Position numbers and translations under genes: made by a program
In this document: in pieces, positions 16,474-17,389 of the stretch
How positions within the stretch are numbered: the stretch's first letter is position 1
How the letters are laid out: each line of letters begins with the position of its first letter
Assembly (NCBI RefSeq): GCF_003334385.1
Contig: NZ_QOWN01000006.1
Reading direction: 5' to 3' (one strand)
Length of the DNA: 64,000 nucleotides
Source: Escherichia coli
GTDB lineage: Bacteria; Pseudomonadota; Gammaproteobacteria; Enterobacterales; Enterobacteriaceae
Notes under the pieces: model-generated
The model's input: the letters and a program-made list of their open reading frames with translations, nothing else
What the model was told of the DNA's origin: nothing
Databases searched by the model: none

Positions 16474-17389
16474 ATGTTCCTTACCGACGCAAAAATCCGC
16501 ACCCTCAAGCCTTCTGATAAACCCTTTAAAGTCTCCGATTCTCACGGTCTGTATCTGCTGGTCAAGCCGGGTGGCTCCCGCCACTGGTATCTCAAAGCTG
16601 GAGGTTGCGTCCCGCACACGGCAGCACCTGAGTAACATAATGCGCCATGCGGTCCATCAGGAGTTAATCGATACGAACCCTGCAGCAAACCTTGGCGGCG
16701 TGACCACACCTCCTGTCAGACGGCACTATCCTGCCCTGCCGCTGGAGCGGCTGCCTGAACTGCTTGAACGTATTGGGGCATATCATCAGGGCCGTGAACT
16801 GACTCGGCATGCCGTTCTGCTGATGCTGCATGTGTTCATTCGCTCCAGTGAACTGCGTTTCGCCCGCTGGTCAGAGATTGATTTCACAAACCGAGTCTGG
16901 ACGATACCCGCGACGCGAGAACCCATTATTGGCGTGCGTTATTCCGGCCGCGGGGCAAAAATGCGAATGCCGCATATCGTCCCCCTCTCAGAACAGTCCA
17001 TCGCCATTCTGAAACAGATTAAGGATATCACCGGTAATAATGAACTGATCTTCCCCGGCGACCATAACCCGTATAAGCCAATGTGTGAAAACACGGTCAA
17101 TAAGGCACTGCGGGTGATGGGTTACGACACGAAAAAGGATATCTGCGGTCACGGCTTCCGGGCAATGGCATGCAGTGCGCTGATGGAATCGGGTTTATGG
17201 GCAAAGGACGCAGTAGAACGCCAGATGAGTCATCAGGAGCGCAATACCGTGCGCATGGCTTATATTCATAAGGCAGAGCACCTAGAAGCCCGCAAAGCGA
17301 TGATGCAGTGGTGGTCGGATTATCTGGAAGCATGCCGAGAATCTTATGCACCGCCTTATACAATTGGTAAAAATAAGTTTATCCCATAG
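16474..17389 (+). pseudogene. int: P4-family tyrosine integrase of the HPI, disrupted by an internal deletion of about 350 bp that shifts frame near 16597
   Basis: N-terminus MFLTDAKIRTLKPSDKPFKVSDSHGLYLLVKPGGSRHWYLK in one frame stops at about 16635; the remainder (LEVASRTRQHLSNIM...) continues in another frame; the second integrase at 60256-61518 shows what the missing segment would be. Confidence 0.8.

Follow-up and report, generated by a model that had tools for sequence, protein, structure and literature searches.

A 347-bp out-of-frame deletion in the HPI integrase gene at asnT of Escherichia coli

The asnT locus, the HPI integrase gene and its paralog at asnV

The DNA analyzed here is a stretch of 64,000 bp (the window) from an Escherichia coli assembly (GCF_003334385.1, contig NZ_QOWN01000006.1). 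Four tRNA-Asn genes were found in it with ARAGORN (16237-16312, +; 55786-55861, -; 57610-57685, +; 60019-60094, +), a tRNA-Ser(CGA) gene lies at 15156-15245, and the gene layout is that of E. coli serU-mtfA-asnT ... asnW-asnU-asnV. The first tRNA-Asn gene, asnT (tRNA-Asn GTT, 16237-16312 on the plus strand), is the integration site of the yersiniabactin high-pathogenicity island (HPI). A window-wide pattern search with the 17-bp att core (CCAGTCAGAGGAGCCAA), allowing up to three mismatches, found it only within the four asn-tRNA genes, and the copy at the 3′ end of asnT (16297-16313) forms attL. The flank at 15188-16313 is 98.9% identical to K-12 by blastn, and this similarity ends at 16313, one base past asnT. 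The island is thus inserted at asnT with attL formed from the tRNA 3′ end, as in the common fixed HPI of E. coli.

The yersiniabactin cargo of the island occupies 17583-46412, with ybtS, ybtX, ybtQ and ybtP on the minus strand and ybtA, irp2, irp1, ybtU, ybtT, ybtE and fyuA on the plus strand, as read from the ORF list and from the annotation of the near-identical strain 4/2-1. All 11 genes are present as full-length ORFs in the ORF list, which is the complete ybt/irp/fyuA set of a fixed HPI, and decay of the island is limited to its mobility functions. Between asnT and ybtS lies the integrase gene (int, also called intB or intA), at 16474-17389 on the plus strand. It is 916 bp long compared to 1263 bp for the intact gene, and both the alignment to the intact allele and PGAP annotation of the same allele in other genomes mark it as a pseudogene. 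Outside the missing segment it is 99-100% identical to E. coli HPI int, which, with tRNA-Asn and ybtS as its neighbors, identifies it as the ortholog of that gene.

A preliminary description of this DNA had claimed that the integrase N-terminus (through WYLK) and the remainder (from LEVASRTR) lie in different frames, that about 350 bp present in a paralogous integrase at 60256-61518 is missing, and that the deletion is not a multiple of three. We used affine-gap pairwise alignment to compare the gene with the intact int of strain 14EC017 (L001:775-2037, WP_000480163.1, 1263 bp, 420 aa). The alignment consists of two gap-free blocks, in which nucleotides 1-123 of the intact gene correspond to 16474-16596 and nucleotides 471-1263 to 16597-17389. 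Nucleotides 124-470 are missing, which is exactly 347 bp (347 mod 3 = 2), and the ORF list agrees with the two separate frames, showing a 53-aa ORF from 16474. The same 347-bp gap was obtained against the paralog as against the intact HPI int, and neither alignment gave a continuous single-frame integrase. All three claims therefore held, with the approximate size now replaced by the exact one. In addition, when 16200-17700 was used to search 5,426 complete E. coli genomes, the matches were either single and 1501 bp long or in two pieces spread over 1848 bp, which is 347 bp more.

The deletion junction (16596/16597, plus strand) is blunt in the alignment, and its placement is unique, as the adjoining bases permit no alternative. 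No microhomology was seen at the breakpoints, and a scan extending 40 bp from each breakpoint found no in-register repeat, direct or inverted, of more than 7 bp. The sole further difference between the window copy and the int of 14EC017 is a synonymous C>T at 16804, which was found in the window alone among the nine deleted copies compared.

The paralog used as a yardstick in the preliminary description is the P4-type integrase gene at asnV (60256-61518, plus strand). It is full-length (1263 bp), and in DNA sequence it is 80% identical to the HPI int 5′ of the gap and 73% identical 3′ of it. The paralog serves to confirm the 347-bp gap, but a TAG in its reading frame at 60784-60786 makes it a nonsense pseudogene too; PGAP labels this stop ‘internal stop’ in the related strain AMSCJX03. 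The two integrase genes next to asn-tRNA genes in the window are thus both pseudogenes. The island remnant at asnV (59950-64000) is about 97% identical to the best-matching complete E. coli genomes, compared to 99.9% for the HPI int region. It also holds a second ‘integrase domain-containing protein’ gene (ORF 62956-63759, minus strand), which is annotated as frameshifted in relatives. In strain 4/2-1, the closest genome for the HPI int region, asnV is empty and followed by ldtA.

Occurrence of the deleted allele and coding capacity of the remnant

In order to count the deleted allele, we searched the 5,426 complete E. coli genomes with a 40-mer spanning the junction (20 + 20 bp), which is able to match deleted copies only. 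The exact junction was found in 334 genomes, once in each, always on the chromosome and under a tyrosine recombinase feature, while 1,999 genomes retain the 347-bp segment. The deleted allele therefore makes up about 14% of int-bearing genomes, or about one in seven. In strain 4/2-1 and seven other genomes, PGAP annotates a 916-bp ‘frameshifted’ pseudogene of the same extent as 16474-17389, and all carriers that were inspected bear such a ‘frameshifted’ int pseudogene. The copy of ML35 (L007 2898-3813) is marked ‘frameshifted; internal stop’, as a G>A change at position 397 of its 916 bp introduces a further stop codon into the frame of the catalytic domain. This second lesion is consistent with ongoing pseudogene decay. 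The genomes of several carriers measure 5.4-5.9 Mb, and one carrier was typed as O111:H11. A truncated int has reportedly also been described, by Karch and colleagues in 1999, in the HPI of STEC O26.

The junction was also found in three metagenome contigs (L020, L021 and L022), which resemble E. coli and match the window colinearly at about 99% identity, including the chromosomal flank. All three contigs depart from the window upstream of the position equivalent to 8418/8419. In L020 and L022, the divergent sequence (...GTTGGAGTCATTACC) presumably represents the end of an IS1; such an element would be a lineage-specific IS insertion, which the window does not have. Outside E. coli, the junction gave no matches in a search of one genome per GTDB species.

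A single window could a priori hide an assembly collapse, in which case the gene would in reality be continuous and its apparent deletion an artefact of sequencing, assembly or reading. We found no support for this, and it is refuted by the exact junction recurring in independent assemblies, namely in the 334 complete genomes and the three metagenome contigs. In addition, PCR and Sanger sequencing had already shown the same deletion in 2010. Paauw et al. (PLoS One 5:e8662; PMC2801613) amplified intB from HPI-positive Enterobacteriaceae and found it about 350 bp short in four isolates, and their sequencing showed that ‘bp 124-470 was deleted’, listed in their supplement as ‘Deletion in intB gene of 347 basepairs’. 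According to the same supplement, the four isolates are one E. coli, one C. freundii and two of the E. cloacae complex, all positive with the yersiniabactin reporter. We consider the chance of an artefact to be negligible; the 347-bp int deletion is confirmed as real, as previously published, and as an ordinary allele of a well-studied island.

An indel is formally symmetrical, and on that ground, and nothing more, the short form could be ancestral and the 1263-bp form the product of a 347-bp insertion. This reading is refuted because domain homology runs across the 347 bp: the segment encodes the conserved second half of the arm domain and most of the central domain, and the same stretch is kept in the asnV paralog. 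Moreover, the long form is one ORF of 420 aa, whereas the short form is frameshifted. The probability that the short form came first is practically nil.

We next consider what the remaining 916 bp can encode. From the native ATG, a residual ORF of 53 aa (16474-16635, plus strand) comprises 41 native residues (MFLTDAKIRTLKPSDKPFKVSDSHGLYLLVKPGGSRHWYLK) followed by 12 out-of-frame residues, with the stop codon TAA at 16633-16635. Its native part ends in ...SRHWYLK and is a portion of the arm DNA-binding domain. The C-terminal 263 codons of the integrase, from L158 to the stop (16598-17389, plus strand), cover the end of the central domain and the whole catalytic domain, with PHROG integrase matches and PF00589. 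They show no amino acid differences from the intact allele, but they are out of frame with the native start and have no properly placed start codon themselves. This undecayed state relative to the intact allele would mean that the deletion is recent or that the region is slow to change, and the window copy taken by itself gives no sign of relaxed selection.

On the intact integrase, Pfam places Arm-DNA-bind_3 (PF13356) at aa 3-87, Phage_int_M (PF22022) at aa 98-191 and Phage_integrase (PF00589) at aa 224-384. With residues 42-157, the protein loses the latter half of the arm-binding domain as well as two thirds of the core-binding domain in its center, and hence neither PF13356 nor PF22022 is complete in the remnant. 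PF00589 is present with its active-site motifs (RSSEL, HGFR and SHQ...AY, read from the sequence), but it cannot be translated from the native start, and the single ORF of about 420 aa from an ATG downstream of the asn tRNA that a functional integrase would have is absent. Lambda- and P4-type integrases need both an arm-binding and a core-binding domain, and lambda-type catalytic domains are not known to perform recombination without them. Because the deletion is internal and out of frame and removes residues 42-157, we infer that a full working integrase could not come from the 916-bp allele. The earlier claim that no functional integrase can be made from this copy is thus supported, at the level of sequence, by the frameshift together with the loss of these residues.

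The ORF list also contains an alternative-frame ORF of 308 aa with a GTG start (16463-17389, plus strand), in which an out-of-frame N-terminus is joined to the catalytic domain. With a naive gene caller, this ORF could pass as an intact ‘integrase’. That the alternative frame happens to run open from 16463 through the junction, and that the catalytic domain is identical in protein sequence to the intact allele, could suggest that the remnant is alive, with the 308-aa ORF or an internal restart product being a domesticated catalytic-domain protein in a new role. However, the GTG at 16463 overlaps the GGAG serving the native ATG, and the ORF is therefore left without its own ribosome-binding site. 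When the exact 308-aa product was looked up in a large gene-call collection, no record was returned, and the ML35 copy has a stop inside this ORF. Furthermore, identity of the catalytic domain to the intact allele is expected equally of a recent deletion, and catalytic domains lacking the arm and core-binding domains are not known to carry out recombination. A domesticated product is therefore extremely unlikely, and the 308-aa ORF is an accident of the alternative frame staying open.

The right end of the island and the order of losses

From the fyuA stop at 46412, about 1 kb of island DNA continues to 47417, and the chromosome follows. This last part of the island contains the first ~106 codons (47104-47417, plus strand) of a post-fyuA gene, whose product is 308 aa long in ICE-type HPIs; by BLASTP, 103 of 106 residues are identical to L019:6986-7909. 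The junction between the HPI and the chromosome is placed by the blastn breakpoints at 47417/47418, with no attR. Similarity to K-12 resumes at 47418 inside yeeJ, which encodes an inverse autotransporter, and 587 bp of K-12 sequence are gone, namely the spacer between asnT and yeeJ and the 5′ end of yeeJ. The yeeJ remnant (47418-49817, plus strand, by blastn against K-12) is annotated by PGAP as a pseudogene in strain 4/2-1. Besides the missing 5′ end, it has internal losses, as 2046-5738 and 6214-6495 of the K-12 locus have no counterpart.

Across the junction, a chimeric ORF (47104-47814) joins the 106 post-fyuA residues to a yeeJ beta-domain fragment. RefSeq lists this ORF as an ordinary protein (WP_001323489.1, ‘inverse autotransporter beta domain-containing protein’), and IAT_beta is the only family found, in its C-terminal half. 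We considered the residual post-fyuA ORF as an excision factor and rejected it, as its N-terminal 110 aa have no Pfam or PHROG match. It is instead the 5′ part of the hypothetical gene for 308 aa, which ICE-type HPIs have ahead of an AlpA-family gene; in strain 5270 (L019), the genes that follow it encode an AlpA-family regulator and T4SS components.

A border deletion on the fyuA side that includes the direct repeat and adjacent chromosome is a feature of the fixed HPI. Schubert et al. (2009; PMC2606025) reported that all HPIs of the ECOR collection except that of ECOR31 lie at asnT with a unique deletion at the fyuA border, through which the direct repeat and neighboring backbone were lost; the island is thus ‘fixed’ and spreads through F-plasmid-mediated transfer and RecA-dependent recombination of the flanks. 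Auvray et al. (2021; PMC8209727) repeat this explanation. The window island has this border deletion, and none of the features of a mobile HPI (attR, a Hef/AlpA-family excision factor and an intact int) was found. The island is therefore without attR, the candidate excision factor and any transfer module.

About 2,046 genomes, UPEC 536 among them, share the contiguous junction from fyuA to yeeJ. Since the int junction is found in only 334 genomes and the 347-bp segment in 1,999, most of these genomes must have an intact int. The right-end truncation, which is observed directly, has a far wider distribution than the int deletion, which indicates that it is the older of the two. The truncation alone is enough to block site-specific excision. 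The preliminary description had found no right-end repeat, which is borne out by the att core occurring only inside the four asn-tRNA genes, and it had taken this and the broken integrase to suggest that the island is immobilized. The immobilization holds, but it does not depend on the int deletion, as its primary cause is the older loss of the right border with attR and the AlpA-family gene. Immobilized here means that there is no site-specific excision; passive spread by conjugation and RecA-dependent recombination of the flanks continues (PMC2606025).

Taken together, these results suggest an account in three steps. The right end would have been lost first, with attR and the AlpA-family gene, as well as the conjugation module in the case of an ICE-like ancestor, leaving the integrase without a partner site. 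Then, in one HPI lineage, one illegitimate recombination would have cut out nucleotides 124-470 of int. The resulting frameshift would stop translation from the native ATG after 53 residues, and any restart further downstream would give a product that has no arm-binding domain and little of the core-binding domain and is unable to assemble a recombination complex. Later, the allele would have been inherited vertically and moved, together with the island and its flanks, by homologous recombination, with the cargo staying full-length. We give this sequence of right-end loss, int deletion and frameshift, with the cargo kept, a probability of about 95%, and none of the observations speaks against it. 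It would represent stepwise domestication of a pathogenicity island, in which attR and the excision factor are lost, then the integrase, while the siderophore cargo is retained.

Origin of the deletion and comparison with known systems

We compared the haplotypes of eight carriers (the window, E2865, ML35, NT1W25, A27, 222, F1140 and ECJXMCRH7) with those of six genomes with an intact int, using 1.1 kb of chromosomal flank and ~3.3 kb of HPI, or ~4.4 kb per genome. Carriers differed from one another by 0-8 SNPs in the HPI part and by 0-3 SNPs in the flank. In contrast, carriers differed from intact islands of the common type by 12-24 SNPs in the HPI part and 2-18 in the flank, and from the divergent island of isolateA by 92-97 and 9-11 SNPs, respectively. 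Because the junction is blunt and free of repeats and the carriers share a tight haplotype, the deletion would have arisen in a single illegitimate event and been passed on by descent; this inference draws on eight of the 334 carriers and ~4.4 kb in each.

The deletion could instead be recurrent at a hotspot, for example one mediated by Int or by structure, with independent origins across strains and genera. The isolates in which Paauw et al. found bp 124-470 deleted, typed as E. coli, C. freundii and E. cloacae complex, point in this direction; the cross-genus isolates among them are not explained by a purely E. coli single origin. There is also a 12/17 match to the reverse-complemented att core at 16571-16587 (int nucleotides 98-114), which is 10-26 bp to the left of the left breakpoint. 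However, no att-like partner was found at the right breakpoint, where the best match is 9/17, and the 12/17 match is probably due to chance, with about 0.03 such matches expected after multiple testing by a rough estimate. The lack of microhomology and of direct or inverted repeats at the breakpoints also argues against a hotspot, as do the single tight HPI-plus-flank haplotype of the sampled carriers, the E. coli-like sequence and colinearity of all three junction-bearing metagenome contigs, and the absence of the junction from every GTDB species representative. We thus regard a recurrent deletion as quite improbable.

A broader alternative starts from the same cross-genus isolates. Either an HPI without integrase, attR and excision factor crossed genera by an unrecognized route, or the deletion recurs site-specifically; as a related reading, the loss of both asn-tRNA integrases may have been selected. 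If selection were at work, its basis would be that the asn-tRNA genes offer an orphan Int four identical att cores, on which its action would rearrange the chromosome. We consider this set of readings unlikely, and the data favor a single neutral event within E. coli over cross-genus transfer, recurrence or selected loss.

The 347-bp deletion offers a handy lineage marker for one HPI haplotype, and where the HPI is typed from the length or the PCR product of int, carriers can be expected to give a fragment about 350 bp shorter. A 2026 preprint left ‘the highly variable intA’ out of its HPI typing. The allele has little importance past correct annotation, and the published picture of the island is unchanged.

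Among known systems, the P4-family tyrosine integrases found next to tRNA genes (PF13356 + PF22022 + PF00589) have the same three-domain architecture as the intact HPI integrase. The remnant in the window keeps the catalytic domain of this family, but its reading frame is interrupted, and the arm-binding domain is cut by half and the central domain by two thirds. The ICE-type HPI (ICEEc1 of ECOR31 and the UMN026 type, represented here by strain 5270) has a homologous core from int to fyuA, and its post-fyuA ORF is retained in the window with 97% identity over 106 residues. However, the ICE-type island continues with the AlpA-family regulator, the T4SS and, according to the literature, attR, and is mobile, whereas the window island stops in the first post-fyuA ORF and its int is broken. 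The common fixed E. coli HPI (for example PAI IV of UPEC 536) shares with the window the insertion at asnT, the ybt set and the right-border truncation into yeeJ; it mostly keeps a full-length int, whereas the window copy belongs to an int-deleted sub-lineage. The closest match is the truncated intB of Paauw et al. (GenBank GQ891728-GQ891731), which, as compared by its published description, is the same gene with the same bp 124-470 breakpoints and the same length of 347 bp. The two deletions show no detectable difference, the window copy being set apart by its private synonymous SNP at 16804, and the positive yersiniabactin reporter of the Paauw carriers fits the full-length cargo ORFs in the window.
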